Numbered from the stretch's first letter, positions 20,001-39,645 are shown. The stretch is 64,000 nt of DNA from an uncultured Acidobacteriota bacterium (GCA_963741955.1 CAVUKB010000004.1:96001-160000), one strand, 5' to 3'. The notes: generated from the sequence alone by a model not told the origin. Numbers and translations are program-made.

Positions 20001-23000
20001 CCCGAGCTCGACATCGTCGACATCTCCACCACCACGACCGACGCGACGCTCGACGGAGCACCGTACGCGATCGGCGCGCCCGTCTCTCTGGAAGGGGAGC
20101 ACGTTCTCGACGTCGCCGTGACCGATGCCGCGGGGTGGACCACGACGCTCGACGCGGTGACGTTCCACATCGACCGCGTACCTCCGGCACTCACTGTCAC
20201 TTCGCATCAGCAGGGTCAGGTCTTGCCGGAGCCGCGCGTCGTCCTCGCCGGCGGTGCGGATGACGCCGTGAGCGTCACGGTGAACGGCCAGACGGCGACG
20301 GTCGACGCGACGGCGAGAACGTGGACTGCGCCCGAGCTTCCACTGCTCGAAGGAAGCAACGCGTTCACGATCCGCGGGACGGACCGCGCCGGGAACAGCG
20401 GGGAGATCACGCTGAATCTAGTTGCCGACACCCGCGCGCCGGAGCTCGCGATCGTGGCGCCCGTTGCCGGAAGCTGCGTCGCCGGCTCGCCGCTCGAGAT
20501 CCGCGGTTCAGCCAGCGATCCCGAGATCGGCGACGTCGTGGTCTCCGTCGATGGAACGTCGGTTCCCGCCTCGCTCGACGCGTCCGGCAACTTCGTCGTC
20601 ACGTTCGCCAACCTCTCCGAAGGAGAGAAGAACGTCACCGTCACGGCGACGGATACGATCGGACATGCGACCTCGCTCGTCCTCCCGCTCAGCATCGACC
20701 GCACGCCGCCGGTCATCGCCGTCACCGAGGGCGGCAAGCCATTCACCGCGACGCTCGTGAACCGCCCGATTGCACTCTTCATCAGCACCAGCGACGCCGA
20801 CCCGAACGCGAAGCCGGTGGCAACGCTCGACGGCGCGGCGTACTCCTCCGGCTCCACGATTGCGAATGAAGGTGCCCACGCGCTTCAGATCACCGCGACC
20901 GACTGTGCCGGTCTCACCGCGACGAGCTCCCTTACCTTCACCATCGACACGACCGCACCGACCATCACGAACCTCCTCCCCGCCAACGGTGCCACGGTAG
21001 GGGAGATGCCGACGACGGTCACCGGCAAGACCGATCCTGACGTCCACGACCTCGTCGTTCGAGCCTCGAGCCTCGAGTCCCGAGCCTCGTCTTTCGCCCC
21101 CGACGGCACCTTCACCATCCCCAGCGTCCCCTTCGCCGAAGGGGAGAACCGCTTCACGATTCACGCGACCGATGACGCCGGAAACTCCAGCGACACGCCG
21201 TACGTCGTCACCGTCCGCACGACGACTCCTTCTCTCGAGATCCTCGACAGCGGCTCGCCGATCCCGCCCGGCGCGCTCTACAACCGCACCGTCACGCCGG
21301 TGATCCGCAGCGGAGCCTCCGACGCGACGATCTCCGCGACCCTCAACGGCGATCCCTTCACCTCGGGGACGGAGATCACCGCGGACGGCGCGTACACTGT
21401 CGACGCCACCGCCACCGACTCGCTCGGCCACAGCGGGAACGCAACCGCGACGTTCTCGATCGACCGCACGCCTCCCGCTGTCGCGATCGCCTCGCCCGCC
21501 GACGGCGCGGCGATCGACGCCGATCAGGTCGTGGTGACCGGCACGTCCGGGGATGCGACATCCGTCAATGTCGACGGCGCGCCCGCCGCACTCGACGGCA
21601 GCGGCCACTTCACCGCGACGCTTCCGCTCGAACCGGGCGAAACGGCGATTATTGCGACCGGCCGTGACGCCGCCGGCAACTCCGGCACCGCTCAGATCAC
21701 CGTCACCCGCGCCGCTGCTGCGACCGGCATCATCCTCACGTCACCCACCGACCACTCCCTGACCAACCGCCCGACCACAGTCGTCACTGGCCGCATCCTC
21801 ACTCCCGCAAATGCCGTGTCGCTCGTCATCGACGGCACCGCGCTCGGAGCGCAGGCTACCGGCCGGCGCTCTCCTTCAAATGCACCCGGATCCACGCCGC
21901 TCGCGACGGCCCATTCCCCTCTCCCCGTCCGGACCTTTGCCTCGGGCGTAAATCGAACTCCGGGGAGAGGGGTCAGGGGTGAGGGGCAACTACGCGCGCA
22001 AACCGAAGTTGTGAGCACGAGTCCCGAGTCCCGAGCCTCGAGCCTCGCAACTCCCTTCGACCCCACCGGCGCATTTCGCGTCACCGCGTTCCCTCTGGTC
22101 GAAGGCGAGAACACCATCACCGCGACCGTCACCGACAAGTCCGGCAAGACCAGCACCGCGAGCGTCCGGATCACAGCAGACCTGACCCCACCCGCTGTGT
22201 CGCTGCTCGAATCAGGCCAGCCTCTGGAGGACCAGGCCCGTTTCGCGACGCAAGCCCTCCTCTCCGCGACGGCGACCGACTCCGGTGCCGCCATCGACGC
22301 GACCCTCACCATCGACGGCGCGTCTGCCACGTCGCCCGGCACGATCACGGCTGCCGGCCCGCACATCGCAATCGCCTCGGCACGCGACACGGCCGGCAAC
22401 GTGACCCGCGTCCAGCGCACGTTCTTCATCGGTACGGAGCAGGGGAGTGGGTGCGGTCTCTCCGCATTCGATCCTGCCGATGGCTCCGTCGTCACCGCGA
22501 GCTCCGTCACGCTCGTCGGCCGCAGCGGCGGCGCAGCCGGCGTCACGGTCAACGGTGTCCCCGCAGTGGTCGCGAACGGCTCGTTCTCCGGCACCGCGGA
22601 GCTCCCGCAGGAAGGGCCGAACCTCGTCACCATCCGCTGCACCGACGCCTCCGGCAACCCCACCGGCGGCCCGGTCACCCTCACTCTCAACCGCGTCACC
22701 GGCAATCCATCCGTTTCCATCACCACTCCCGCCGAGATGGCGACGTTCGCCGCCGGAACCGTCGATGTCACCGGCACGTACGCCGATGCCTCCCGCGTCG
22801 ACGTCAACGGAGTCGCCGCGACGCTCGCGAACGGAACCTTCAGCGTCGCCGCGCTCCGTCTCTCTCCTGGTCTGAACATCCTGGTCGCCCGTGCCACCAA
22901 CGAAGCCGGCCGCAGCTCCATCGCTTCGCGCCGCGTCCTCTATCTCGACAAGTCGTCCGTGATCTCCATCGACTGGCCGAACGACGGCTTCACCACCGGC

Positions 23001-26000
23001 GCCGCCTCTCTGGACGTCAGCGGCACGTGGAGCAATCTCGTTCCGTCGACCATCACAGTCAGTGTGAGCGGCGTGCAAGAGGCGAGAGACGAGAGGCGAG
23101 GGGCGAGAAGGAACACAACAGGTCGGCTGCGGTCGGCGGAGCCACGATCGAAGAACGATGTCGCGAGCGACGACGGTACGGTTTCTTCACGCACCGCCCG
23201 CCACTCGACACACGCCTCCGATCGCATCGCAGCGCAGGGAGAGAAGAATGAGCTTCGACTATCGCGATCTGAAAGCGTGGCAGCTCGGAATGCAGATGGC
23301 TCGTCGGGTCTACGAGATCACGCGAGATTTTCCGAAGCGAGAACAGTACGGCCTGACGCAACAGATCCAGAAGGCAGCCGTTTCGGTTCCGTCGAACATT
23401 GCGGAAGGTCATGCGAGGGATTCGACGGCGGACTTCCTCCGCCATCTGTCGATCAGTCGCGGTTCGCTCGCGGAATTGGAAACGCAGCTGATCTTGGCGA
23501 AAGCTTTTGGATATCTCCCTCTGCAGAGCCTGGAGGAGTTGATGAAAGTATCGGACGAGCTGAGCCGAACTCTGAGGGGACTTCAAAAATCGTTGAGGCG
23601 TCGACTGGAGAAGAAACCATAGCGGAAGTGTCGATCGATGCGATTGCGTGGTCCGACACGACTGGAAACTTCATCGCTCACGCGGTGCCCTTGCTTCCCG
23701 GTACTCAGACCATCACCGTGACGGGTTCGACCATGGATGGTCGCATCGCCACCACGAGTATTCGGGTGACCAGAATCGATGGCGAATCAGACATTACGAT
23801 CGATTCGCCTCTCGCCGAATCCTGGTTCAGCGCGAACGCGGGAGATCCGATCTCCGTCGCCGGCACCTTCACTGCAGCTCCCGGTTCCAATGTCGAGGTG
23901 AATGGTTCGACGGCGACCCTCGGCGTCGCCTCTTCTTCGACCAGAACAGTCACCCTCGCCGCGTCCTCAACGAGCGCTGTCTCTGCGCACCCCGTTTCTT
24001 CGCTCGCCTCTCGCCTCTCGCCTCTCGCCTCTTCTTCGACCAGAACAGTCACCCTCGCCGCGTCCTCAACGAGCGCTGTCTCTGCGCACCCCGTTTCTTC
24101 GCTCGCCTCTCGCCTCTCGCCTCTCGCCTCTTCTCCTTACTCTGCAACCGCCGCGTTCTCCTCCTCCGACCCCACTCCCATCATCGCCCGCGTCACCCAG
24201 CCCGACGGCCTCTCCGCGATCACGACCATCTTCGTCCATCACCTCTCGGGCGCTCCTGCAGTGAAGGACGTCTTCCCCGCGGACGGCGCCACTTCCGTCG
24301 ATCCCGCAGCGCTGATCCTCGTCTCCTTCTCCGCGCCGATGGACCGCGCGTCGCTCTCGGCCGCATTCACGCTCGAGAACATGAGCGGCATGCCCGTCGC
24401 CGGACAGATGCGTCTCGATCGCGATGTCCTCAGCTTCGCCCCCGCGACGACTCTCAATCCCGGCGAGCGCTATACCGTCCGTCTCTCGACCGCCGCGAAG
24501 GACCTCGCCGGGAATGCGCTCGCCTCCGAGTTCACCAGCAGCTTCACGATCTCCACCACGGCGCCATCCACCGCGCCGGTGGTGAACCCGGTCGCCTCGC
24601 CCCTCTGCTCGGATCGGGTCGCCCTCAGCGGCACGGCACTTGCGGGGTCACGTCTGCGGATCGATTTCAAGGGCGTTCCGCAGTTCACGGCCGCGGCTCC
24701 GACGGAACGTGGCATTTCGATCTCGCCATCCCCGCCGAATCGGGATTCGACGTGGTCCGCGTCCGCATCGTCGGCGGCGACGGCACGCTCTCGCCTGCGG
24801 CCGAAGTGAAGTTCCAGGTCGACTGCGCCGGTCCGCAGCTTCTCGGCGCGTCCTACGACCGCACCACGAACATCGTCACCATCGACGTTCTCGAAGCCGA
24901 TGGATCTCGCATCAGCGTCCACCGGCCGAACTCCGCTCTCTCTCTCCAGATCGCCGACGGCACGATCCTCGGCGGCACCGTCGCGCAGGGCGACGAGCTC
25001 CTCTTCGCTCACCCTTACGCCAGCATCCGATCTGACGCAGCAGACGTTCACGCTCAACGTCACGACCGCGATCAAAGACACTACCGGCCGCAACCTCGTC
25101 TCCGGCTATACGCAGACCTTCGCCACCGGCTCCGGATCCGAACCTCCTCCCACCGACGGCACCGGCTACATCTCCGGCAAGATCCTCGACGCCGCCACCG
25201 GTCGCCCCCTCGCGGGCGCGGACATCACCATTGACGTCCCCGTGAACGCCTTTGCCCGAGGGGAGCAAGCTCATAGCTTGCTCTCTCGTTCCACTGGATC
25301 CGCACCCATGCCTCTCGGGACCTCCGGTTCCCCTCTCCCCGTCCACACCCAGGCCTCGGGCGCAATTCGCACTTCGGGGAGAGGGGTCAGGGGTGAGGGG
25401 CAGCTACGCGCGCTGAGCGAAATCGTAAGCGCCGCTTCGTCCACCCTCTCCTCCGACGCCACCGGCACCTATACCACCCGCCTTCCCGAAGGCGCCTACA
25501 CCATCCACGCATCCGCTCCCGGCTACACCGAGGTCTGGCGCCAGATCGTCGTCCCGGCCGGCCAGGGCGTCCTCCCGATCGACATCCGTCTCACACCCCT
25601 CGGCGCCACCGGCACCGTCGGAGCGGCCTCCATCGAGCCCCGAGCCTCGAGCCTCGAGCCTCGGTTCCGTCGGCTCTCCCACGAGCCCCGAGCCTCGAGC
25701 CTCGAGCCTCGGCTCTGTCGGTTCTCCCACGAGCCCCGAGCCTCGAGCCTCGAGCCTCGGCATCCTCTTCAGACCTGACCCTCTCCCACGGCGGCGAGAC
25801 ATCCGTCACCCGCCCCGCGACGCTGACCGTCCCCTCCGGCGCCGATCACCTCCGGCACGACACTGACACTCACCTCCGTCGGCGGCCAGTCCCTCGCCGG
25901 CCTCCTCCCTCTCGGCTGGTCCCCGCTGGCGTCCACAGAGATCTCCTCCGTCGCCACGTCCGCGAACGCAGCCCGAGGGGAGCGAGCTTATAGCTTGCTC

Positions 26001-29000
26001 TCTCCGAAGACATCCGCAGAAATCGGACCTGCCAGCGCGAATCGCCCAGCGTCCTCCCTCGCCGCTCCGGTTTCGTCCTCACTCGTCTCTCGCCTCTCGT
26101 CTCTCGCCTCTCTCCCCAACTCCACTCTCACGTTCACCGTCCCTTACACCGATATCACCAGCGCGGCTCAGACCCTCACCGCCGTCCGCTACGACAGCGA
26201 TCGCGACGAATGGATCGTCCTCGAGCCCGTCGTCAGCATCACCTCCGACGGCCCCGCCTCGATCACCGTCGACTCCACCGGCGCGTACGCTCTCGTCTAC
26301 CCGGATAAGGACTCGGGGAGTACTCTGCAGACTCCACCGCTCCCCATTCCAGGCTCGGCGCTCGCCGGCGTCACTCCCGTCGACCTCGATCCGACGACCA
26401 TCACCGCATCTCTCACCCTCGATCCTTCGATCGTTCTCCCCAGCGGCCGAACCGTCGGCACCCTCACGGTCTCTCCGAGCCTCGAGCCTCCAGCCTCGAG
26501 CCTCGCGTTCCCCTCGGGCACCGCAGTCCAGGCGTTCGTCCACGAAGAGCTGCGTCTCGTCGACGGAACCGTCGTCGCGGACCAGCCGTTCTCCGCGGAC
26601 CTCGTCCTCTACCGCACGCTCTCCGGCGCTCCGGCGACCGCGGCGTTCCACCTCCAGCCGAGCGCGAAGGCCGCGACGGTTCCGCTGCAGATCGGCTACG
26701 ACCACATCCGCGTCTTTCCGTATCCCGGACGCCTCGACCGCGGCACACTCATCGGCCCCGAGGGTGGACGCGTTCCCTCGGATGGGGGAGTGGAGCTCGA
26801 GATCCCGCCCGGCGCAGCCACCGAGCCGCTCCACGCCAGCGCGACGTCGCTCGACGCCACTGCGCTCGCTTCCTACGGCACCATCGACGGCTTCACCCTC
26901 GTCGGCGGCTTCACGTTCTCGCTCGACCGCGCAGTCGGGGGAGAAGAGGCGAGAGACGAGAGGCGAGAGGCGAGTGGATCTGACGCCCGAGGCTCTCGTG
27001 GCTCGGGCTCTTCGTCACGCGCATCGGAGATTGGAGCTGGCAACGGTGATCGTGAAGCGTTCTCTCTCGCCTCTCGTCTCTCGCCTCTCGCCTCTGACGT
27101 CGCGTCCCCCACGCTTCTCGCCTCCGCCCGCGCGACCTTCTCCGTCGACACGACCAATCTCACCGCGCCCCAGTTCATCCTCGCCGAGGTCCTCGGCGAC
27201 ACGCCGTACGGCCGTGTGATCCGTCTTGCGAACGTGATGGAACCACTTGTTGGAGGAGCCGAGGCTCGAGACTCGAGGCTCGAGGCTCGCAGCGGCATCG
27301 CCCGTGGAGAGCAGGCTTATAGCCTGCTCCCTCCGGTACCATCTTCAGACACGGGTGTCGCGAACGATCATCGTCAGGCGTCCTCTCTCGCCTCTCGCCT
27401 CTCGTCTCTCGCCTCTGATTCCACGCGCATCACCACATCCAGGATCGATCCCTCGAACCTCCCTCTCGACGGCATCTCCCACTCCGGGATCTACCTCCTC
27501 CTCCGCGCGAACCAGCCCATCGCCTACGCGACGGGTCTCGTCCGCTTCGGCATCTCCGGCCTCTACGCCTCCGACGCCAGCGTCCTCTCACTCACGTCGA
27601 CGCCACTCGGGACGGCGTCGGTCAAGGAGGCGAGAGGCGAGAGGCGAGAGGCGAGGGGAGGAACGAATTCCGGACTTCTGTCATCGTCACCCGCTGATGC
27701 GCAGGCTCATAGCCTCCGCTCTGGTTCCGGCAAATCCGTACCCGCGACTCTCGCGACGCCCGCTTCCCCTCTCCCCGTCCGCACTCTCGCCTCGGGCGCA
27801 AATCCCAATTCGGGGAGAGGGGTCAGGGGTGAGGGGCAACTACGCGCGCAGAACGAGGTCGCTCGCAGGGCCTCCTCCCTCGCCTCTCGTCTCTCGTCTC
27901 TCGCCTCTTCTCCCGCGTCGCTCGCCGCTTCGTCCCCCCTCGGCACCACCGACCTTACCCGCCCCACCGGCCTCTTCTCCATCCCCGTCGTCGCCACTCC
28001 CGCGGATCCCTTTGCGCTCCAGCCCTCGCACCCATCCACCGGCGCCGGCACCCCCTGGACCGCAAACTCCAGCCCTGACCCCGGCATCGTCATTCACGTT
28101 GGCGATCTTGTTCTCACATCGCAGCCGCCGCAGCTCCAGCACGTCAACGTCATTGGCGGCGACCCCTCCGGCACGATCGACCTCGTCGCCGTGAACGGGG
28201 CAGGCGAGATCTCCCTAGGCACGAGTGTTCAGGCCCTCTTCGACGTGAACCTCGATCCGGCATCCGCCGGCGCGACCTCGCTCGTCGTCACCGACGCGTC
28301 CACGCAGACCGTCGTCGCGGGCACCGCGATGCTCGCCGGCTCGACCCTCACCTGGACCGCATCCACTCCGAACGCGCTTGCGCCGTCGAGGCAATACAGG
28401 GTGACCCTCTCAGCCACGCTCCGCGGCGCGAACGGCGCCCCGCTTGGGACGACCCGCACGTTCGCCTTCACCACCGTTTCGCAGATCACCAGCACCGAGA
28501 TCGATCCTTCCAAGATCCACATCACCATCCCCGACGCGAACGGCGTATCCACAATTTACGGCCTCCCCGGCGCGCTCCCCTCCGGCTGGCGCGCCGTCGC
28601 CCTCCGCCGCGGCACCGCCTTCGTCACGCAATACCAGACCACCGCCGCAGGGGATGGAAGTTTCTCGTTCGCGATCGGCGGGTGCGGGGGAGGGACGGGG
28701 GTCGGGGGTCAGGGGTCAGGGGTCAGGGAGCTGAGTCGATCTGATCGCCGGACCTCTGAGATTTCCCGCGACGAAGCCTTGTCCCTGTATTCGTCGACCC
28801 ACACGTCACCCCGACCCCTGACCCCCGACCCCGGACCCCTAAGCTCCGTCTCGCAACCACAATTACGAAAGGCCACTCATGAAGATACAAACCTATCGCG
28901 ATCTGGTCGTCTGGCAGGAATCGATGCAGCTCGCGAAACAGGTGGTCCTGATCGCGCGTCGGTTTCCTCGGGAGGAACTCTTCGGATTGTCGGCGCAGGT

Positions 29001-32000
29001 CAAGAGAGCAGCCGTATCGGTGCCGTCGAATATCGCGGAAGGGCACGCGCGGGATTCGACGAAGGAGTATCTCCATCATCTATCGATTGCTCACGGTTCT
29101 CTGGCCGAAGTGGAGACGCAGCTCCTGCTGGCGAAGGATCTTGGCTGGGGAGACTCGTCTTCGATCGAAGGAGCTCTCCAACAGAGCGATTCACTCGGCA
29201 GGAAGCTTCACGCATTACGCAGATCGCTTCGATCGCGCCGCTGACGGCGGCTCTCCCTGACCCCCGACCCCTAACCCCTGACCCCCACTCCCGTCAGGCG
29301 ACTACGACATGCACGGACCAGCTCTCCCTCACCGACCACATCTCCCTCGAGATCCTCAACACCGCCGACAACATCGCGGCGATCATCCCGCTCACGCCAT
29401 TCGTCACGGCGGACGGCCACGGCTTCGTCGCCCCGCCCGACCAGGACATCACGTTCATCATCTCGGACGAGATTACCGTCCACGTCCCCGCCGGCGCGTT
29501 CGACCAGCCAACGCTCGTCACCGCCACGCCGTCCACGAAGGACGCCTTCTCCGAAGTCCCGAACTTCGACACAGAGCTCGACTACAAAGCCTCGGTCAAC
29601 CTCTCCTTCGACTGCACAGTGGCTTCTTCGTCCTCCCCGAGCCTCGAGCCTCGAGCCTCTAGCCTCGGTTCCCCAAGTCTCGGTTCCCCAACGAGCCTCG
29701 AGCCCCGAGCCTCGAGCCTCGCGTTTCCCTGTCGCGCGAACAAGCCCCTCGACCTCTCCATCCCGGTTCCCGCAAACACCGACCCCACGAAGCAATACCT
29801 CCTCGGCTGGCTCGGCCAGTCCATCCGCGGCCCGCGGATCATGATCGTCGACACCCTCCGCATTGACGGCGACCACTTCACCACCACGCCCGCGCCGTCG
29901 ATCGGAACGACCAGTGCGCAAACCGTGCACGCATCGTCGACCTTTTCAAACTCGTCGCTCTACCAGGTTCGAGATCCCGGAACGTACGTCATCACCTCAC
30001 TGCTCAGTCCCTACGCCTGGGTGGATGTCGTCGTCAGATCGGCTGACCTCTACTGGTCGACGTCGTTCTCTCTCTTCGTCGCAGAACGCTACATCACGAT
30101 GGCGAAGGGTCACGTATACATCCCCGTGCTGACGGACACGCCCTTCCGCGTCTACGGCGTGGACGCGACCGGTTTCGAAACCTATTCGCGCGATTACGAC
30201 GGAATCGTTCCTGGAGATCCTGGAGTTTCGGTAGCACTCCCATCGGCATCTCCCGATAACAATGGACCTTATCCCGTGTGGGGCAGCCCTTATCGCGTCG
30301 ATTCCGTAATCCTTCGCGATGGAGACGTGATCGTTCCAAACATCAAGGTCAATCAGTCGGGAGGAGTTGCGACGGTCACGCAGAACTCTTCCTCCACCAC
30401 CGCGAGTGTTCTTTCGAAGGGAACGAAGGTTCAGGCATTCGACGTCGAAACCGGCGCGGTGAACAGCGCGACAGTCGGTGACGGCGGCAGTTTCTCGATG
30501 TCAGTTTCTCCGGTCCATTCCGGAGACCGTCTTCTTCTCTTCATCAGTGCCTCCGACGTCGATCCGTCGAGTCTCGTCACCGTGGTTTTCAACGAGCCGC
30601 TCCAGCTCGCGAACATTCCGGAAGGCATGAGCTCCGCGGATGCCGAGATCGCAAACGAGAAGTTCCTGCACGACCTCATCGGCCTCGAGCACTTCACTAG
30701 TACGGGATGGGTACCGATAACCGACCAGGTGCACTTCCGGCACGATTCGGGAGACCGCCGAATCGTCCTCGAGTTGCCGTCCTCGCTGGTTCGAGGCGAT
30801 CGGTATCGGGTTCACCTCAGCGAGGCAATCACCGACGCCGGGGACAACCACATCGGATCGGTTAAGGACTCCAGCGGGAAGGTCACCAACGGCGCTGGAC
30901 TCCCGTTGGATCTCGAATTCACGGTCCGCAGCCCACACGGCGCGATCTCCTCTTTCGACATCGATCCGAGCACGGCTCACCATGGAGGGCTCGTGCGTGA
31001 CATCGCACGCAACGACACCCTCGTCTTCGTCTCGGCTCTCGACGGCGGAATCCTCGCCTACGATACATACGATCCGGCTGCACTCGCAAAAGACGGAAGC
31101 ACTCCGGCGCCCCTTTCCTTCGTGCCGGCCGCATGGACCAACGATGCCGGACAGCAGGTGACCGGCGGGATGGACGAGCACTGGGCGCTTGCCGTCGATA
31201 AGCACGGGCGCGTCTTTTCGACCGGCTTCATGGCCTCGTTCTCGGTCCTTCGGACTTACCGCGTGGAAGATTTCTGGAAGGCCTCCACTCAGCCCATGTG
31301 TGCCGGATTCGATCAGGCGCCACCGCACGCCCTCTGTAGATACGAGGGCTCCTCAATCATCGCCTGGCGCCCCGGAGTGTCGCTCGGCATTCCCGGGATC
31401 GACGATTCCCTCTACGGACTGACGGAAGGCTATCCGCGAAAGATCCGAGTCATTGAGCAGGACGATGGAGGGGAAGCTCTAGATCGAGACAACTTTGCGT
31501 CGACCTACGGAGGCGCGATCCAGAAGACCTTCAGCAATGGGATTCAGAAACTCTCCGTCACCGTCGCATGGGATACCACGAATCCCTACCAGCTCCAGCG
31601 CATTACGGTGGAGAACCTGACTCAACAGCTTCACTGGTCTGCCGACGCGACCCCGACGTCTCCTGCCGTGATCTCGGAGATCCTCGCCAAACCGGACGAC
31701 AAGCTCCGAATTGTGAAGAACGAGCGCACGTGGGCCGTCGTATCTCTCTTCGGCTACGGGATCGCCACCTACGACGTGAACGCCATCGAATCCAATGATT
31801 CACCAGATAAGGCTGCGGGTTACACCAACGTACCCGAACAGCTGTTCCTCTCGTCCGCCAGCGTCGACGATGCGTGCGACGGCCGGACGTTCCCGACCGA
31901 GGCGATCCGGGATTTGGCCTTCAGTCCCGATTTCGTCGCGAAAGTGGAAGTCGACGCCACGACCAACACAGCGACCATTGGGATCGACGCTCTCGATGTC

Positions 32001-35000
32001 CGCAAAGGCGTACTCGACGTCCTCACCCCGATCGGTGGGGGACTCCAGAAGGGGTCATGCCTCCAGCGGTGGGCGGGACTCATCGTGAACGACCCGGCGT
32101 CCGGATACCTCCTGAGCCGGTTTCAGGGCGTCAACGACGAATTCACGGAGAAACATCACCCGAACCCGTTCATTCGATTCAGCTCGGCCGACTATTTCGA
32201 CTGGACTGTCCAGGCAGAAGACAACACCATCGGACTTCGGGGATCGGAACCCGGCACGAACGTTCATCGTGAGTACGCGCTGGTCGCCGGTGGAGACTAC
32301 GGGCTCCTGGTGGTCGAGATCGGTGGCGATCCCCTCCCGAGCAAGGCTCCAGTGACTCATCCGCTCGATGCGGTGAACCTGGTCGACGACATCTGGTTCC
32401 CTGCAGGGGCCTATGCCGTTCGAGCGATTCCCGGTACCTCGATGGCCGCAGTCCTCGATGGGAAGCACCGGCTGCTGCTCGTCGACCTCTCGAGGATCGA
32501 CGAACGGTGGGACGAAGGCGTCGGGCCGAACGATTTCTTTCCCATCCCGGATGCGGCGATGAAGAACAAAGGTGGGCTCCCTGACGAGGTGGGTGTGGAC
32601 GACCCACGCATCATCTGGAAGTCGAAAGAGGACTTCATCGCTGGAAGCATTGCGCCGATCGTCGACCCGCGCACGGGCATCGTTTACGCGGGCGATTCCA
32701 CTGGCAAGAAGGTGAAGATCGGGTCAGTCCTCGATCCGCGGGTACGAGCACTCGCAGATCCCGATGGCACGGGACAACTGCGGGAGGTTGGCTCGGTCTT
32801 TGGCCTCGGAGTGAAGACCCTTCTCGCTCTTCCTTCGGTCGGTGGGCTCTCGGCGTTTCGATTCGAGGTCGATCTTCCCGGAGGCGTCGCTCAGTCGATC
32901 TCGGATCACAAACTCCACTTTGCCGTCGAAAGTGAGCGCCTCCCGGGTGTGGCCGAATTGCAGACCGCCGCTCCATGGCCGCTGTCGAGCCTCCGACTGA
33001 CTACACGTTCCGGTGAGGCGGAGCTGACCGGCAGGCAGACCGATATCGTTCTCGAGCAGGAGCTCACGAGCGGATTGACGCCGGAGGAGGTGGCGGAGCT
33101 CGCCCCGATCCTTCGAAAGCAGGAAGGATCCGCGCGATTCGTCTCGCCCTGGATCGTGGTCCTCGCAGATCCGCGTGCGAGCGAAACGGCGGCCCCACCC
33201 GTGGGCGGCCTTGCCGCTGCCGGATGTGAGAACTGCGTGCGGCCCGAGGCGCTTCGGAACAAGAGTCGAAGCGATGGCGTGTACGAGATCATGGCCACCG
33301 GCCCGCGGATTGCGATTCGTCCCGAGTGCGAGCTCGCCGCAGGATGCAACAACGTATTCGCGGGAACCCCGTACGAATATCTTGGCCAGAAGGGGAGACT
33401 CGAAGCGGTCCTCCAGACCACTCCCGCCGATACGATTCGCCCGACGGAAGCGCTCGTCGCCGCACAGAACCCTCCCGTCGCCGACGGGATGTTCCAGGAC
33501 GCGATCTATCTTCACAGTGGCGAGCTCGAGACTGTCTCGACGGACCTTGATGCGGGAGGTCGCGCTGGCTTCGAGGTCACGATCGATCGCTTCTACCGAT
33601 CGCGATCGATGGGAATGTCCCCGCTCGGCAATGGATGGGACTCGCCGCTGTACCGGCGTTTGCGGCAGCTTCCGGATGGGAGCGTCGAGTACCGCGACGG
33701 GGCGGATGTCTGGATCTTCAAGACCGGCGACGCCAGCACGGGAGTGGCGGACGTTCTCGCATCGATCGTTCGTCCGACTCTCGTCTACAAGTCACCGGCC
33801 GGACTCGATCTCAAGCTCGTCGCGAATCGCGACGGATGGGTCCTGATCGACCAGCAGTTCCGACTCACCCGATTCGACACGACCGGGCGCCTCGTCTCCG
33901 AGTCGGACGTGATGTACGACCCGAACAAGCCCGGGTCGGGCAACGTCATTCACTATCTCTATGATGACGAAGGTCGCCTCGCGCGCATCGTCGATCCTGT
34001 TGGGCGAGAAACGACGCTCACGTACTGGCACTACGGCGACGACCCGGCGAGGCGCTACCCCGGCCTTCTCGCGAAGGTCACCGACTGGCGTGGCCGTGAG
34101 GTCGAATACGACTACGATGCCGAAGGTCGCCTCACGGACGTTCGGCTCCCCGAAGCCGCCGCAGCGGACGGCGTTCCGTCGAAGTATTCCCATAGCCGGT
34201 GCGGCGCGCCCCGTGATCCACTACACGTACGACAAGACTCCCAGCCAGATCGCGTCGGGTCTCGATGCCCAGCACTCCCCGGAGGTCCTCGACTCGATGG
34301 AGTTCGTCGGAAATCTCGGCAGCGAAACGGATCCTGCCGAGGTCGCGTCCGGCGGCCCGCCGCGAGTGAGCTACACGTACGGCGCCGCTGGCGACGCGCT
34401 CACGCGCGACCGCATCTCGATCCAGCACTGGCCGTGCGGAAATCACGTCGGTGGTAGCTGCTCGAACCTCGACGCAACGCTGTCCTGGACCGCTTCGAAC
34501 GCGGTCAAAACGACCGATGTTCTCGGGCAGGTGCGGGAGTACACGCTGACCGATCCCGCGAAGTATGACGAAAAGGTTCACATCGGATCGATCAAAGCGT
34601 CCATACCAGCCATCGACTACTCGAACGGATTGCCGGAGGTAGCGCAACCTTCCCTGACACCCACCAGCGCCGACATTTCTATGAGTTACGAGTACGACGA
34701 CGCCGGAGAGATCCACATTGCCGACTCGTCCACGGGCCTCAAAACGCAACTCGACCACAAGGCGGCGAACAACGGGGCATCGGGCGAGCTGCTCTACGGA
34801 ATTGTTCAGATGGCACCGTCAATCGGTCAGTTAATCGCGAGCGTCGGTTACGACAATGTGCATCCGACCTCATCGAACGTGCTCTTTCAGATTGGGCGTC
34901 CGGATGCGGCGACAGGCAAGGATGTTTTTCGTGAACTTTCCATCGGCACACGCGATCGATCGAGCATCGAGCGCACCGATGCGGGAACGAAGAGCACCAC

Positions 35001-38000
35001 GAGCTTTGATGATGCCGGTCGTGTGAAAGAGATCAAGACGGTGGATGACCAGGGTACCGTCACTCAAGTCACGAAACTCACGCCGTGGGGCGATACCGAT
35101 GGCACCCTCGCCATTGCACGGGGCCGAAATCACGTGGTCGACTCCGGAAATGGGAGCGTCGTCACCGAGATCTCGTACCAGGATGGTCCCGGCCACGGAA
35201 TGATCGTCACCGCGACGGACCAGAAGAATTCCGCGGAGACGGTGACCTCGTATGACGCGGCCGACCGGCCCATCCACGTCGTCGTGACCGGGCCGAGCGG
35301 CACTCTGAAGGACGAGACGTACGGCTACGACGCGTCGGGACGACTCGCCTTCACGCGCCGCAAACAGAAGGGCGTCGGCAACGTCACCAGCGAAACGACC
35401 TTCGACGCGATGGGCAGGGTCGTCAAGACCACCCTCGACCAGACCTCGGTAGGTGGCTCGCTGCAGAATGTCTCCGCGAGCAGCAGCTATGACCTTTCCG
35501 GCCACACGATCCTGACCGAGCCCCTCCACGCAGGTTCCGCTCCGTACACGACGGAAACTCAGATCGACACACTCGGTCGAGTGGTCAAGCGCACCACGAA
35601 CGGCACAACGGACGGAAGCCTCATTTCGGTATTCGGCTACGACAAGCATGGGCAGCAGAGCTATGTCTCCGACACCGTGCGCACCGCAGAGATCCGGCAG
35701 TTCGACGATCTCGGACGGCAGATCGGCTCCGCCACATCCGATGGTCGGAAGACAATTACGACCTGGTCCGCCTGGAACGAGCCGCTCGAAACCACCGAAT
35801 ACGCCTCAGATGGTTCGATCTCCAGCCATGACAAGAACATCTTCACTTCTCATGGCCGCCTTCGTGCGACCAACGAGGCAATCGTCACGAATGGCGCTGC
35901 CCGGCAGTCCCGCTTCAGCTGGGATGATGGCGACAAGACTCACGGAACCTCGGTCGCACCGATCGCATCGATCGACACGATCAATCTCACCGGTCCGAAC
36001 CGTCGGGCGGAATCCGTAGTCGACGACGCCGGACGCACGATCGCGACGCGAATGGGGCTCGGTAACGGCATCGCGAAGTCCCTTCTTGATGACGGCTCCG
36101 TGATCTTCGGATCGAGCGATACGAACTACCTCGGTACCCTTCCCCTGAGCGTCACGACGAGAGAGCCACTGGCGGGAGCCCAGTACGCGACCACGACGTC
36201 CTATGATGTCCTGGGCCGCCCGATCGCCAGCACCCTGGCGGGCATCTACACGACGAAAACTGAATGGGACGAGGCCGGCGATGGCCTCAGCGTCACGCGC
36301 CCGGGGACGAGCCCCGAAAGTGCGACGTATGACTCCCGTGGCCTCGTTCTCACAAGGACCCTTCCCGACAACGAGACGCAGTCGTACCAGTACGACTCCC
36401 TCGGCGGCGTCACCACCTCCACCGACGAAGCCGGTGAGCCGACGATTTACACCCGCGATGACCTCGGGCGCGTGAAACTGATCCGCTATCCCGATGCCAC
36501 CACGGAGGAGACCCAGTACGAGCCGGTCACGGGCGCGGTTCTCGCGCACAAGAATCGCGCCGGCACCTGGCTCTCGTACGCCTACGACGCTGCGGGACGG
36601 GTGACGGAAGTGCACGAAGGCGAGGACCCTGCGAACGGAAAACTCCTCGAGAAGTACCAGTACGACGCCGCCGGACGTCTGCAATTCGCGAAGAATGCCG
36701 ACGCCTGGATCGAATACGCGGATTACGACCTGCTCGGCCGCCGGCACACCACGCGCAGCTACCGGCTCGCCGGCGATGGACTCGCGCTCACTGCGACGAC
36801 GCTCGACATCCACACGCAGAGACACGACTGGAACGTTTACGACGAGCGCTCGTCGTGGCACATGCCGGTCAACGGGTTCGAAGTTCCCAACGACGACCCG
36901 AATCTCCCGTGGCTCCAGACGATCGTCGAGACTCGGGATGCCGGATCGAATCTCGTCGGGCAGGCGAGACCTGACGGAACGCTTCTCACCGAGGCCACTC
37001 CCCGCGGCGCGGGGCGCGTCAAGGATCGCACGGTGCATCTTGCGGGAGGCTCGGTGGCCGTGACCTCGTTCGCATTCGAAGACGGCAATCCGGTTCCCCC
37101 CACCGGAGATGAGATCCCGGGTCTGTCGTGGCCAACCGGTCCGTCCACAGGGTTTCCTCTCGGCGACATCACCGAGTCGAATGGCACCGTGATCTCCGGA
37201 AGCCTCCTCGATCGCGATTCGGCCGCCCGGGTCGCGAAGATCGATCTCGCCGGGCTCGTCTCGCACGAATCGAGCTTCGGCTATGACGGTCGGGGACGCC
37301 TCCAGCAGTCGCTCCTCATTTGGCCCGACGGAAAACTTGATTCAGCACCGAAGACGATCGACACGTTCGTCCCTGCCGACTTCCTCACTCTCCACGAAGC
37401 TCCTTCGGCACTCTCTACAGCGCAGAACCAGAAGCTCGGGGAGAAGGCCTGGTCGATCGAGCCCGCAACCTGGAGCGCCTCGCGGCGGACCGGCGGACGG
37501 ATCGGAACGCTTACTCTTTCTCTGCCGGGTCTGAACGAAAGCGCCCGCACGTTCCAGTACACCGGCGGCCGCCGCACCTCCGACGGAGTCTGGACTTACA
37601 CGTGGGACGATTTCGAGCGGCTCACCGCGATGGAGAACCCCTCCACCTCGCGCCGTATCGAGTTCCGGTACGACACGAGCGGCCGCGTCATTTCCCGTAC
37701 CGCGTATCGGATCGGCGGCACGGAGCCGCTCCTCGAAGACCGTGGGGACATTCTCGCGAAAGACGGGCTTCCGGCCGACACGACGTTCGTCTGGGATCCG
37801 ATCGCCGACCGTCTCGTGGCCATCTTCGAAGGGCGCCAGACACTGGTCCCCGGCGGCCCGAAACCGTACGACGGTCTCCTCCGCCAGATGCTCCATGGCG
37901 ACCAGGGGTACGACGATCCGGTCGAGGTCCTCAAACGCGTCGGCGGCAGCTCGTCGTACCCCGAGGTCGAGCACTTCTATCCGGTGGTCGACCACTCGGG

Positions 38001-39645
38001 GACCGGATCCCTCCAGGCGGTGCTCGGCGCGGACGGCAATCTCATCGAGCGCGTCCTCTACGGCAGCGCCTGGGGAGCGAAGCCGAAGTACCTCCAGGGA
38101 CCGATGGTCGAGAACGCGAAGCTCGAAGCAGAGAAGGACGGGAGCGGGAATCTGAGGAAGGTCACCGCCGAGATCCGGCTGACCGAGAAGATCGCCGAGA
38201 GCTCGCTCCCGGGCATGGGGATCCATCTTCTGAAAGCCGACGGGAGCGAAGCTGCGCCGCCCACCGGCTCGCTGACGCTCGACTCGAAGAGGCCGAACGT
38301 CCTGGTCTGGAGCGTGAGCGGAGCCGAGTGGCAGTCGTGGACGAGTGCGAGCGGGGCAGCGACGCTCGAGATCGCCGTCACGGACCAGCTCCGTGCCGAA
38401 GGATGGGGCGACACGCCGGTGATGCCCGCTCCGGAGTGGGCGACGACGCTATATGGTGTAAAATCGAGTGCATCACGACCGTGGCAGCGTCGCGAATCGC
38501 TCGCGACGCTCGCCACCGAGCTCTTTGACAAGACCGCGGCCGGTGCGACCCGCGACCGGGAGATCTACGACATCCCGGATCTCTATCTCGCCGCCTCGCC
38601 CGACTCAAAGACGCAGCTCCTGACCGGGTTCAAAGCCTATCCCTTCACCGAACCCGCCTCCGGGATGGTGTACGTCCGCGCCCGCTGGTACGACCCGGAG
38701 ACCGGAACGTGGCTCTCCCCCGATCCGCTCGGCTACCGCGACTCCTCGAACCTCTACGCGTTCGCGGGCGGGGACCCGGTGAATGAGACAGATCCGACGG
38801 GTCTTGCTCTGTACGCTTTCGATGGGACGTGGAACGACCGCACCAAGATGCAAGGGCATGAGACGAACTCTGCAAAGCTGTTCGATGTGTACGGCGGTCC
38901 AAACAAACAGTACGAAGTCGGGGTCGGGAACAAGTGGTATTCGTCGTGGGTCGGCGGGGCTACCGGGTTAGGAGGGCGTGCTCGGCTGAACGAGGCTTAC
39001 AAAGCTCTCGAAGAGTTTTACAATAGCGGCGATCATGATATCGATATCATCGGATTCAGCAGGGGCGCGGCCGAGGCGCGTGAGTTTGCGAATCTGATCA
39101 ACGAACGCGGCGTTTACAACCGGGCGACCGGGAAGGTCGACCACCCGCCGGTTCGCTTCCTCGGGGTGTTCGATACGGTTGCTTCATTTGGCATTCCGGG
39201 GAATGACATCAATCTCGGTTACAACTTGAAGGTTGCGCCGAACGTCCAAACGGCCCGGCAGGCGATCGCCGCCAATGAGTACCGCGGTACATTCCCGTTA
39301 TCGCGCCTAGAGAATCCGAAATGCCCTGACCCGCGCGTTGAGGAGCAGCCCTTTCCGGGCTCACACTCTGACGTTGGCGGCGGATACGAAGATAACCAGC
39401 ACCTTTCTCGCGAAGCATTGAAATGGATGTGGGCGCAGATGAAAGCGGCTGGTTTGCCGGTTGATGAGCTTTCAGAGGAGGATCTCAACGACACTGATCC
39501 TGCCAAGGTCCATAAGTCGTATCGAAGCTGGATGTCGATTCCGACTTGGGTCAGGGTCGCGTGGGCTCATCACCAACGCCGGAAGCCGAGCCGAAAGACA
39601 TATTACCCACCCTGCACGCAACCGAGGTTGGAGGCAGGACGCTGA
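17049..39645 (+). CDS. rhs: Giant (~7500 codon) exported Rhs/YD polymorphic toxin: signal peptide, lectin-like domain, Ig repeats, SbsA/Big_5, carboxypeptidase-regulatory-like, beta-propeller, DUF6531-like, YD shell, Rhs core, DUF2235 toxin. Split into ORFs 16476-24809, 23648-25234 (3' part), 24900-25778, 25995-34457 and 33961-39645.
   Basis: Signal-like LLLFFALLPALPLFA|QS near 17920-17970; continuous domain logic across apparent +/-1 shifts near 24690, 24885, 24925, 24990, 25640-25760, 25845 and 34197; RARWYDP..G.WLSPDP.G......NLY.F...DPVN..DPTG core. An alternative start exists at 17769. Confidence 0.75.
17157..17531 (-). CDS. DUF5615 PIN-like toxin (VapC45-like), antisense within the giant gene's 5' extension
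   Basis: MKLLID.NL.P....L...G....H........D.EI...A......VVTRDLDF...GARARLLPL. Confidence 0.9.
   Translation of the reverse strand: MKLLIDFNLAPSLARKLSTRGIESVHWMSIGEPTAADSEILERARRQGWVVVTRDLDFSDLLALSSQRLPTVIQIRMVDVLNEELVAMILALVESHAEAIQAGCLISVDERGARARLLPLRSPE
17528..17770 (-). CDS. DUF433 antitoxin
   Basis: RITRDPAVMGGKPCIRGMRVTV..IL..LA.G....EIL..YPYLE..DIR.AL.Y; GGAGG RBS. Confidence 0.92.
   Translation of the reverse strand: MHRLTRITRDPAVMGGKPCIRGMRVTVGTILGLLASGRTAEEILSEYPYLEEADIREALAYGAWRSSEAEVEIGKAADPQ
21916..21999 (+). repeat. Palindromic element CCCCTCTCCCCG-N33-CGGGGAGAGGGG-TCAGGGGTGAGGGG, copy 1 (in frame)
   Basis: 12-bp perfect stem; encodes SPLPV...GRGVRGEGQLRA. Confidence 0.85.
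23248..23622 (+). CDS. Four-helix-bundle protein (TIGR02436 / 23S rRNA-IVS protein, Avd-like fold) nested in the +1 frame of the giant gene
   Basis: YRDLKAWQ.GM......Y..T..FP..EQYGLT.QI.KAAVSVPSNIAEG.AR....F..HL.I.RGSL.ELETQL; GGGAGAG RBS. Confidence 0.93.
   Translation: MSFDYRDLKAWQLGMQMARRVYEITRDFPKREQYGLTQQIQKAAVSVPSNIAEGHARDSTADFLRHLSISRGSLAELETQLILAKAFGYLPLQSLEELMKVSDELSRTLRGLQKSLRRRLEKKP
23926..24133 (+). repeat. 99-bp tandem duplication, each unit ending in (TCGCCTC)4
   Basis: Units start at 23926 and 24025; encodes ASSSTRTVTLAASSTSAVSAHPVSSLASRLSPL twice. Confidence 0.9.
25260..25286. repeat. REP-like hairpin GAGCAAGCT-NAT-AGCTTGCTC (also at 25977-26003 and 27309-27329; degenerate near 27700)
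   Basis: 9-12-bp stems with a 3-nt loop; the three full copies encode ARGE(Q/R)A(H/Y)SLL. Confidence 0.8.
25330..25413 (+). repeat. Palindromic GRGVRGEG element, copy 2
   Basis: Same stem and tail as 21916-21999. Confidence 0.85.
25635..25758 (+). repeat. Three 48-bp-period units, each with a 4x heptamer tract
   Basis: GAGCCCC(GAGCCTC)3 at 25635, 25683 and 25731. Confidence 0.9.
26945..27095. repeat. Inverted heptamer tracts forming a 30-bp stem with a ~91-nt loop
   Basis: 26945-26974 vs reverse complement of 27066-27095: 28/30. Confidence 0.85.
27627..27907. repeat. Inverted heptamer tracts (~31-bp stem) enclosing palindromic element copy 3 (27766-27849)
   Basis: (GAGGCGA)4 pairs with TCGCCTC/TCGTCTC x4; the mismatches are G-U compatible. 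Confidence 0.85.
28697..29286. mobile_element. IVS-like cassette: 34-bp inverted (GGGGTCA)4/(TGACCCC)4 arms enclosing a four-helix-bundle gene
   Basis: 28697-28730 vs reverse complement of 29253-29286: 31/34. A second TGACCCC tract lies at 28812-28839. Mobility is inferred, not shown. Confidence 0.7.
28879..29244 (+). CDS. Second four-helix-bundle protein (TIGR02436-like), nested in the +1 frame of the giant gene
   Basis: MKIQTYRDLVVWQ.SM.LA......FP.EE.FGL.AQV.RAAVSVPSNIAEG.AR....Y..HL.IA.GSL.EVETQL; GAAAGG RBS. Confidence 0.93.
   Translation: MKIQTYRDLVVWQESMQLAKQVVLIARRFPREELFGLSAQVKRAAVSVPSNIAEGHARDSTKEYLHHLSIAHGSLAEVETQLLLAKDLGWGDSSSIEGALQQSDSLGRKLHALRRSLRSRR
38804..39645 (+). other. 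C-terminal toxin domain: DUF2235 / Tle1-like alpha-beta hydrolase (phospholipase)
   Basis: After DPTG: FDGTWN, IIGFSRGAA, FLGVFDTVAS, FPGSHSDVGGGY. Confidence 0.9.

Follow-up and report, generated by a model that had tools for sequence, protein, structure and literature searches.

The window analysed here is a 64,000-nt stretch of DNA from an uncultured Acidobacteriota bacterium (GCA_963741955.1 CAVUKB010000004.1:96001-160000), in which a small gene lies nested within a much larger open reading frame (ORF) on the same strand and is enclosed by long inverted repeats. The small gene and its repeat arms (hereafter, the cassette) are the subject of this analysis. The host ORF is a piece of a giant gene for an Ig-like/Rhs surface protein, the orthologues of which in relatives are single ORFs of 5462-7386 amino acids (aa). 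The genome under study (hereafter, G000) is 99.1% complete and has 63% G+C.

A nested PF05635 gene in a giant surface-protein gene

The positions of the cassette, its host and related inserts are summarized in Table 1. The nested gene encodes a member of the family annotated as 23S ribosomal RNA (rRNA) intervening sequence (IVS) proteins, with profile scores of 121 bits for PF05635 (cut-off 33.8), 118.4 for TIGR02436 (cut-off 24) and 137.7 for NF008911 (cut-off 137). The protein also matches the sequence of the solved structure of XCC0516 (PDB code: 2gsc), a pentamer of four-helix bundles, with an E-value of 1.3e-25. The available text of PMC3936711 describes an R-x3-S-x3-N-x2-E motif for PF05635 proteins and the occurrence of such genes inside cas loci; the motif is intact here (R43, S47, N51 and E54), and S47 and E54 are invariant, with N51 nearly so, among 23 aligned sequences. 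Family matches of the nested protein are confined to PF05635 and bAvd, with no match to a Y1/HUH transposase.

Of 40 other genomes searched, 11 have the two flanks of the cassette on one contig at a distance of 0-70 nt, compared with approximately 606 nt here. Roughly 200 extra codons separate Cys 28683 from Cys 29310, where the orthologues carry C-x(5-9)-C. An initial annotation of this DNA had proposed that removal of the cassette would bring the host segments AIGGCGG and TTTCTDQL together in a Cys-Cys loop, and had suggested a search for empty-site homologues; the two segments are indeed adjacent in the orthologues, and the empty sites exist in the 11 genomes just mentioned. The cassette insertion is specific to this lineage. 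The count of 11 includes one unpublished genome (G034), and the junction alignment shows ten of the 11, G010 having been dropped downstream with its two matches in different frames. An exact search of metagenome contigs with 36 nt of host flank returned no match. Among sequencing runs, one DNA run of a soil metagenome contains the stretch and may represent the sample of origin, and no RNA run with it is listed.

The product of positions 28140-29999 was modelled with AlphaFold2 from an alignment of 10 sequences, with nine published orthologues used (predicted template modelling score, pTM, 0.49). Both flanking beta-domains fold, with predicted local distance difference test (pLDDT) values of 76-93. 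The segment between strands 175-180 and 401-406, residues 183-390, is modelled without secondary structure and with pLDDT values of 26-43.

Table 1. Positions of the cassette, its host ORF and other inserts of the giant gene, counted from the first nucleotide of the window
Feature	Position	Strand	Remarks
Host ORF, 2820 codons	25995..34457	+	Big_5, RHS_repeat, DUF6531; stop-free through the cassette
First Cys codon of Cys-Cys loop	28683..28685	+	Just upstream of the insertion; from orthologue alignment
Left arm	28697..28730	+	G-rich heptamer array (GGGGTCR)n; host frame reads GVGGQGSGVRE
Inner hairpin loop	28731..28808	+	Occurs once in the genome
Inner C-rich arm, competing partner of left arm	28809..28840	+	From repeats and fold
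Shine-Dalgarno-like GAAAGG	28867..28872	+	6 nt before the nested ATG, outside both stems
Nested gene, 121 aa	28879..29244	+	PF05635/TIGR02436 four-helix-bundle '23S rRNA IVS protein'; frame is host frame +1
Outer C-rich arm	29253..29286	+	Host frame reads LPDPRPLTPDPH
Second Cys codon of Cys-Cys loop	29310..29312	+	Just downstream of the insertion; from orthologue alignment
G-rich GAGGCGA-type arm of second cassette	23077..23111	+	From repeats
Second nested PF05635 gene, 124 aa	23248..23622	+	One base ahead of host frame
Two (CTCGCCT)4 arrays, 24003-24033 and 24102-24132	24003..24132	+	Complementary to arm 23077-23111; separate in-frame insert
hp1, gene-less heptamer-armed hairpin insert	26946..27095	+	In frame; this genome only
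hp2, heptamer-armed hairpin insert	27262..27412	+	In frame; this genome only
hp3, heptamer-armed hairpin insert with nested dispersed repeat	27622..27915	+	In frame; this genome only
Small in-frame insert, (CGAGCCT)n arrays	29632..29722	+	In the next Cys-Cys loop; absent from orthologues

Host reading frame and folding of the arms

The genome carries six strong PF05635 genes, three of which are nested in long ORFs: two lie 5.6 kb apart in the giant gene and are the two found in the window, and the third lies in a gene for an HmaA-type helicase. In all three of these cassettes the host frame is the frame of the small gene +2. No stop codon occurs in the host frame over 203 codons (the cassette of the 28879 gene), 185 codons and 144 codons, respectively, and the other two frames hold 5 and 6, 1 and 9, and 3 and 5 stops. 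Under mononucleotide shuffling, a stop-free host frame has a probability of P <= 0.005 for each of the three. The open frame argues that the nested cassettes are translated through and not skipped, since there would be no reason for zero stops in the host frame of a cassette that is excised or bypassed.

Two sets of PF05635 loci provide a wider context. The relatives' sample comprises 27 loci, one of which (L027) is from an unpublished genome (G024); the wide sample, retrieved with an alignment of 7 sequences, comprises 79 analysable loci from many phyla, with L116 left out as having too little flank. The conclusions are unchanged if the unpublished genomes G024 and G034 are dropped. Where the gene is not nested, an open +2 frame spans it in only 4 of 27 cases from relatives and 13 of 79 from the wide sample, and an open +1 frame in 0 of 106 loci.

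Each arm consists of tandem heptamers, GGGGTCA-type on the left and the complement of this unit on the right. A perfect (TGACCCC)n array puts a stop in any frame at every third unit. Within the C-rich arms, the 3 units with the T(G/A)A position in the host frame read CGA, GGA and CGA, and 5 of the 6 out-of-frame units retain TGA or TAA (hypergeometric 4/84 = 0.048). Such substitutions of stop triplets would explain the mismatches of the stem.

A repeat search recovered the outer arms 28697-28730 and 29253-29286 as 34 nt with 91% complementarity (31/34), 522 nt apart, in agreement with the pairing described initially. Their inverted-repeat score of 25 compares with a mean of 9.3 and a maximum of 13 in 200 dinucleotide shuffles, and is reached at just 2 of 300 random positions in the genome. 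The competing inner arm that had been placed near 28809-28840 is likewise found, with pairings of 28692-28721 with 28809-28838 (30 nt, 90%) and of 28698-28741 with 28796-28839 (44 nt, 80%). The two C-rich arms are direct repeats of one another (28816-28847 versus 29255-29286, 84%), and among 106 other loci just 2, L064 and L124, have a hairpin upstream of the gene, which gives this three-arm layout. L106 was also flagged and was rejected, its flag having arisen from a run of N. The inner arm, third in this layout, is the C-rich array duplicated locally and not a conserved switch.

As isolated duplexes the inner and outer pairings are predicted at -68.6 and -79.3 kcal/mol, respectively. The predicted minimum-energy fold of 28680-29300 (621 nt) amounts to -276.1 kcal/mol and uses the inner hairpin; the outer stem is predicted to form, at -262.9 kcal/mol, when the inner arm is blocked. 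In the predicted ensemble the left arm pairs with the inner arm with a mean probability of 0.74 and with the outer arm with 0.005, so that the two folds are not both populated. The ribosome-binding site does lie downstream of the inner hairpin, as was noted at the outset, but its position outside both stems means that neither fold gates it. The initial annotation had gone further and suggested that mutually exclusive folds could toggle between expression of the nested protein and its excision or skipping. This is not supported: the inner hairpin dominates, the ribosome-binding site is ungated, the host frame is open and the inner arm is too rare among the loci to be a conserved element.

Searches for known RNA elements were negative. 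At a permissive threshold, Rfam returned for 22500-30500 just sub-threshold look-alikes of the hairpins among microRNA (miRNA) precursors; at the gathering threshold there was no match at the three G000 loci L001-L003, and no rRNA, intron or riboswitch family matches at the loci. A scan of 28300-29700 found no promoter-like or terminator-like site by the sigma-70 consensus, which may not be that of the host organism. An RNase III gene is present in the genome. The RtcB ligase was not found in this 99.1%-complete assembly, which disfavours splicing by RtcB.

Cassettes and heptamer arrays in this and other genomes

The arrangement of a PF05635 gene between inverted arms recurs widely. Among the relatives' loci, scored against 20 shuffles each, 25 of 27 have a flanking inverted repeat above the shuffle maximum and 22 of 27 reach a score of at least 18; a truncated contig and a weak match account for the two failures. 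In the wide sample 51 of 79 loci exceed the shuffle maximum by more than 5, and these come from Planctomycetota, Acidobacteriota, Pseudomonadota, Chloroflexota, Bacteroidota, Clostridia, Fibrobacterota and others. A period of 7 is seen in 36 of the 45 wide-sample loci with a score of at least 18, with a heptamer unit that differs cassette by cassette. A stem around the gene is the usual layout of the PF05635 family and not a special switch. In 50 of 54 loci the 5' arm is the G-rich one. This was considered as a possible sense-strand RNA signal and rejected, since an X...revcomp(X) layout reads alike on both strands and shows polarity, not which strand matters. Plasmid matches to the nested protein are mostly from Nostocales; of two named plasmid copies checked, the one in Nostoc edaphicum has (TAGGGAG)n arms of 34 nt (97%), and the one on the gamma plasmid of Nostoc PCC 7120 has no flanking inverted repeat. 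Cultured bacteria with PF05635 genes between heptamer arms include Adhaeretor mobilis HG15A2 (L124), Xanthomonas codiaei (L100), Luteimonas soli (L114) and Bosea sp. OK403 (L083).

Six true nestings were identified among the 13 open cases of the wide sample (L064, L067, L070, L082, L108 and L127), and their hosts are genes for Eco57I/MmeI-type, Type ISP, N6_N4 and DUF1156 methyltransferases. Two further candidates, L090 and L135, were rejected as not nested. These six methyltransferase/restriction hosts suggest that defence genes, or large mobile genes, are favoured. In the helicase case from G000 (L001, G000:C4:3500-7500, positions 1706-2140) the cassette sits in frame in a gene for an HmaA-type SNF2 helicase, called HmaA by PADLOC; the insert of approximately 130 aa is absent from 4 aligned relatives, and its flanking inverted repeat is weak, with TAGGAC-type units. 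All nested cassettes (9/9) are oriented in the sense of their hosts, and just one antisense span of at least 300 aa occurs in the 79 loci. Several bacterial phyla have large genes that carry such cassettes in frame. At one other locus (L011, G023:C3:94259-97573) the PF05635 match shares its frame with a long upstream open frame, of 612+ aa in the locus and 1114 aa in the contig, which may represent a fusion or read-through.

Other PF05635 genes of G000 are also bracketed by repeats. The copy at C4:517020 has flanking inverted repeats of 43 nt (93%) with GAATGCA units, and that at C6:534950 has heptamer-rich ones of 54 nt (91%). The cassette with the 43-nt GAATGCA-type arms (L002, G000:C4:515000-519500, positions 1541-2467) fills exactly the interval from the stop of an imuB-like (IMS) gene to the start of a dnaE2-like gene, in the orientation of both. 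A divergent PF05635 gene (L003, G000:C6:530500-537500, positions 1391-3340), with the domain at residues 82-176 of a 199-aa ORF, is ringed by 70-nt non-heptamer repeats, both direct and inverted.

The giant gene has taken up several inserts besides the cassette. The insert of the second cassette (23078-23633) is missing from 10 orthologues, nine of them published and the tenth from G034. Its complementary arms lie beyond a 97-aa host domain that the orthologues share, so that its stem would enclose host coding sequence. The inserts at 23940-24140 and 29632-29722 are likewise in frame, have heptamer arms and are confined to this genome. The hairpins hp1, hp2 and hp3 are absent from eight orthologues, and gene-less hairpins with GAGGCGA arms lie in the giant gene; BLAST found no similarity between the loops of the gene-less hairpins and the cassette leader. 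None of the 7 inserts tested has a stop in the host frame, although for the short ones this would not be unlikely by chance (P 0.11-0.63). Loop, leader and gene of the cassette are single copy, and just the heptamer arms recur in the genome. A dispersed repeat of approximately 110-156 nt containing GGGGAGAGGGGTCAGGGGTGAGGGGCA occurs in the window at 25240-25420, 27700-27860 and 21866-22009; the repeat is found nested in hp3, in frame in the giant gene and in tandem arrays at G000:C5:1165283-1168866.

Compared with the G007 orthologue, the reading frame of the giant gene changes from 0 to 2 near 24690, from 2 to 0 near 25030, from 0 to 1 directly after a (CGAGCCT)n array insert at 25641-25760, and from 1 to 0 near 25840. 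This cluster is local, and the adjoining stretches of 8-15 kb are uninterrupted; it may consist of true mutations or be an artefact of assembly. Downstream, an ORF at 33961-39645 of the window carries RHS repeats and a C-terminal Tle1-like phospholipase domain of the type found in type VI secretion system (T6SS) effectors. From this domain, the giant gene probably ends in an interbacterial toxin module.

Heptamer arrays are unusually abundant in G000, which holds 566 of them, against 5-85 for periods 5, 6, 8, 9 and 10, and 50 inverted pairs of arrays with the same unit. Four cassettes have arm units that belong to dispersed families: GAGGCGA (48 arrays), GGATCGT (30), GAATGCA (10) and GGGGTCA/GGGGGTC (3+11). 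The commonest unit is AGGATCG, with 155 arrays, one of which is 194 nt long (G000:C6:83775-83968); many of these arrays are paired in inverted orientation at distances of 140-570 nt, and the interval holds no PF05635 gene. Three arm units of relatives, all from one bacterial class, were each searched in 31 genomes. The unit (AGGGATC)3 has 54 matches in its home genome G020, 1 in G000 and 0 in 29 others; (GCTTCTA)3 has 101 matches in its home genome G005 and 0 in 30 others; (GAGTGCT)3 has 85 matches in its home genome G006, and is found in 6 other genomes of the same family and 0 in 24. The arm repeat is dispersed and genome-specific for 3 of 3 units tested. This dispersal of the arm heptamers suggests a system like that of repetitive extragenic palindromic (REP) sequences and REP-associated tyrosine transposases (RAYT), also known as REPtron elements.

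Interpretation and comparison with known systems

We consider it probable, with moderate confidence, that an IVS-type PF05635 cassette has been inserted in frame into the Cys-Cys loop of the giant gene, where it is read through and its small protein is internally initiated. The sequence comparisons show the gene family, the stems, the insertion as against empty sites, the open host frame and the recurrence of the layout. The element comprises an apparently promoter-less PF05635 gene with its own ribosome-binding site, bracketed by inverted tandem-heptamer arrays, and has entered the interdomain loop in the orientation of the host. The phase used is the only one (host frame equal to the cassette-gene frame +2) in which the small gene has no stops, and stop-type triplets that would fall in the host frame within the C-rich arms are replaced. 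The host would then be transcribed and translated straight through, with the cassette forming a disordered loop of approximately 200 aa. The small gene would depend on host transcription, and its product would be made by internal initiation in the overlapping frame. The pattern probably reflects survivorship, with persistence limited to sense insertions that lie in the one stop-poor phase and in tolerant loops; from such survivorship we infer that ribosomes read through the cassettes.

Several points weigh against this account. The stems, at -69 to -90 kcal/mol within a coding region, should hinder ribosomes, and both read-through translation and internal initiation are deduced from the sequence. 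There is neither a transposase nor a visible target-site duplication, and the interior of the cassette is single copy. The AlphaFold2 model is based on a shallow alignment (10 sequences; pTM 0.49), and the avoidance of stops in the arms was counted over 9 units. The giant gene shows four frame changes at 24690-25840, which may be gene decay or assembly error, and its ORFs overlap at 33961-34457.

A second possibility, which could coexist with in-frame insertion and read-through and which we put forward tentatively, is that the PF05635 protein and its own flanking heptamer arrays are partners, with the protein acting in trans as in REPtrons, and that arrays and hairpins with the matching unit are non-autonomous copies which it spreads or maintains genome-wide, coding regions included. 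The abundance of the three tested arm units at home and their absence from most of the other genomes searched would fit such a partnership, as would the 566 arrays with their 50 inverted pairs, the presence of four cassettes' units among the dispersed families, and the GAGGCGA-armed gene-less hairpins in the same giant gene. The link is a correlation, however, and arrays could spread by polymerase slippage or recombination without the protein. Neither of the two most frequent units, AGGATCG (155 arrays) and AGCCTCG (54), is exactly the unit of any cassette, although one arm of the C6 cassette is built of AGGATCG-type units; non-heptamer repeats flank one PF05635 gene (C6:532493); and the three units tested come from a single class. 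To our knowledge the PF05635 protein has no nuclease or recombinase motif, which also counts against this role. A still broader proposal, which is doubtful when taken as a whole, is that PF05635 and inverted heptamer arrays form a widespread, genome-specific repeat-propagating system analogous to REP/RAYT, built however on a small Avd-like four-helix bundle. Its cassettes and gene-less hairpins would settle in frame in coding sequences, with a preference for large genes of surface proteins and of anti-phage defence, and in this system the 7-nt period and the stems offer a possible handle for frame switching or gating by RNase III.

It is also conceivable, if rather unlikely, that the transcript is processed as in an IVS: RNase III would cut the stem or stems, free the mRNA of the small gene and sever the host message, thereby down-regulating or splitting the host. 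According to the available text of PMC4990558, true IVS elements with the PF05635 family and heptamers are cut by RNase III at the first repeat, and here the stems are 30-44 bp and the enzyme is encoded in the genome. Were cutting efficient, however, the host frame would have no reason to stay free of stops, as it does in 9 of 9 nested cases.

Phase variation seems unlikely. A unit of 7 nt is not a whole number of codons, so that each heptamer gained or lost would shift the host frame, and slippage could switch surface and defence genes off and on. The hosts found here (a giant surface protein, restriction-modification methyltransferases and a defence helicase) belong to gene classes known to be phase-variable elsewhere, which counts for this mechanism. 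Furthermore, one of the frame changes in the giant gene directly follows the array insert 25641-25760, and heptamer copy number differs between Coxiella strains in the text available from PMC4990558. Nevertheless, the arrays of the nested cassettes are short (3-5 units) and degenerate, which should lower slippage, the same arrays flank the gene at intergenic sites, where frame is irrelevant, and the other three frame changes are not at arrays.

That the giant gene is a pseudogene, kept open through its inserts by chance in GC-rich DNA, is improbable. The four frame changes, the ORF overlap and the 63% G+C could be taken in this sense, but the gene retains open stretches of 2820, 2777 and 5083 codons, the host frame is free of stops in 7 of 7 inserts, and the HmaA-type helicase and the six methyltransferase hosts are long open frames. 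Finally, an RNA switch, in which the left arm alternates between partners and mRNA rejoining or ribosomal bypass restores a cassette-free host protein, is very improbable: both isolated duplexes are strong and the cassette sits exactly where its removal restores the conserved loop, but the inner hairpin wins by 13 kcal/mol with outer pairing at 0.005, the three-arm layout is found in 2 of 106 loci, the ribosome-binding site is outside the stems, the host frame is open, and neither RtcB nor any Rfam, intron or riboswitch match was found.

The 23S-rRNA-IVS proteins make up a large family, spread over many phyla, to which no function has been assigned, and the present locus ties it to an excess of heptamer repeats. 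With in-frame insertion as the preferred reading, such cassettes can occupy protein-coding genes without breaking them, as overlapping dual-coding inserts in the loops of surface, restriction and defence proteins. If the link is functional, the family would gain a role, the heptamer repeats would be explained and a new kind of in-frame selfish element would be recognised; if so, such elements could have a bearing on annotation and protein evolution and possibly on how defence genes are regulated. Within the limited library of literature that was searched, no report joins PF05635 to heptamer inverted repeats or to in-frame nesting, and the wider pattern of PF05635 cassettes, heptamer arms and in-frame nesting is new within that scope.

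Parts of this pattern resemble known elements. Rickettsia palindromic elements are in-frame selfish DNA in coding genes; they share with the cassette a palindromic insertion into ORFs at tolerant loops with the host frame kept, and differ in that the cassette has its own gene, is single copy except for its arms and occurs in a different phylum. The many near-identical copies typical of MITEs (miniature inverted-repeat transposable elements) and palindromic elements are not seen for the cassette. REP sequences with their RAYT gene are dispersed, often as inverted pairs, and genome-specific. The cassettes are alike in placing a gene between inverted copies of a repeat found scattered through its genome and particular to it, as in REPtrons and REPINs; unlike these, the protein is a small four-helix bundle and not a Y1/HUH transposase, and the repeats are heptamer arrays and not single palindromes.

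For the short tandemly repeated repetitive (STRR) sequences of cyanobacteria and the (GGGAATC) repeats of Xanthomonas, the available text of PMC4692102 describes over-represented G-rich heptamers, often in convergent inverted pairs and with unexplained function. The excess of G-rich arrays and the convergent pairing are shared with G000, whereas a PF05635 link or a function does not appear in that portion of PMC4692102, and here the arrays bracket PF05635 genes. PF05635 is related to Avd of diversity-generating retroelements (DGRs) in the text available from PMC10053308, and a distantly shared fold family is the extent of the likeness: the scores of the nested protein (bAvd, E-value 3e-4; NF033474, 25 bits) are below the cut-offs of 40 and 80 bits. 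A DGR context was rejected, as the only reverse transcriptase (RVT_1) of the genome lies on contig C11.

Another parallel is with the 23S rRNA IVS of Leptospira and Coxiella that carry an S23p/PF05635 ORF; intervening sequences of this kind were reportedly treated by Ralph and McClelland in 1993. In Coxiella, three tandem GACAGAT units precede the S23p ORF and an RNase III site lies at the first unit, as described in the accessible part of PMC4990558. The likeness to an rRNA IVS drawn in the initial annotation holds for the protein family, for the ORF in the loop of a long stem and for the tandem heptamers beside it, and fails for the location, as there is no rRNA at the loci. In contrast to the rRNA elements, the cassette lies in a protein-coding gene, in frame and free of stops, so that its excision is not required.

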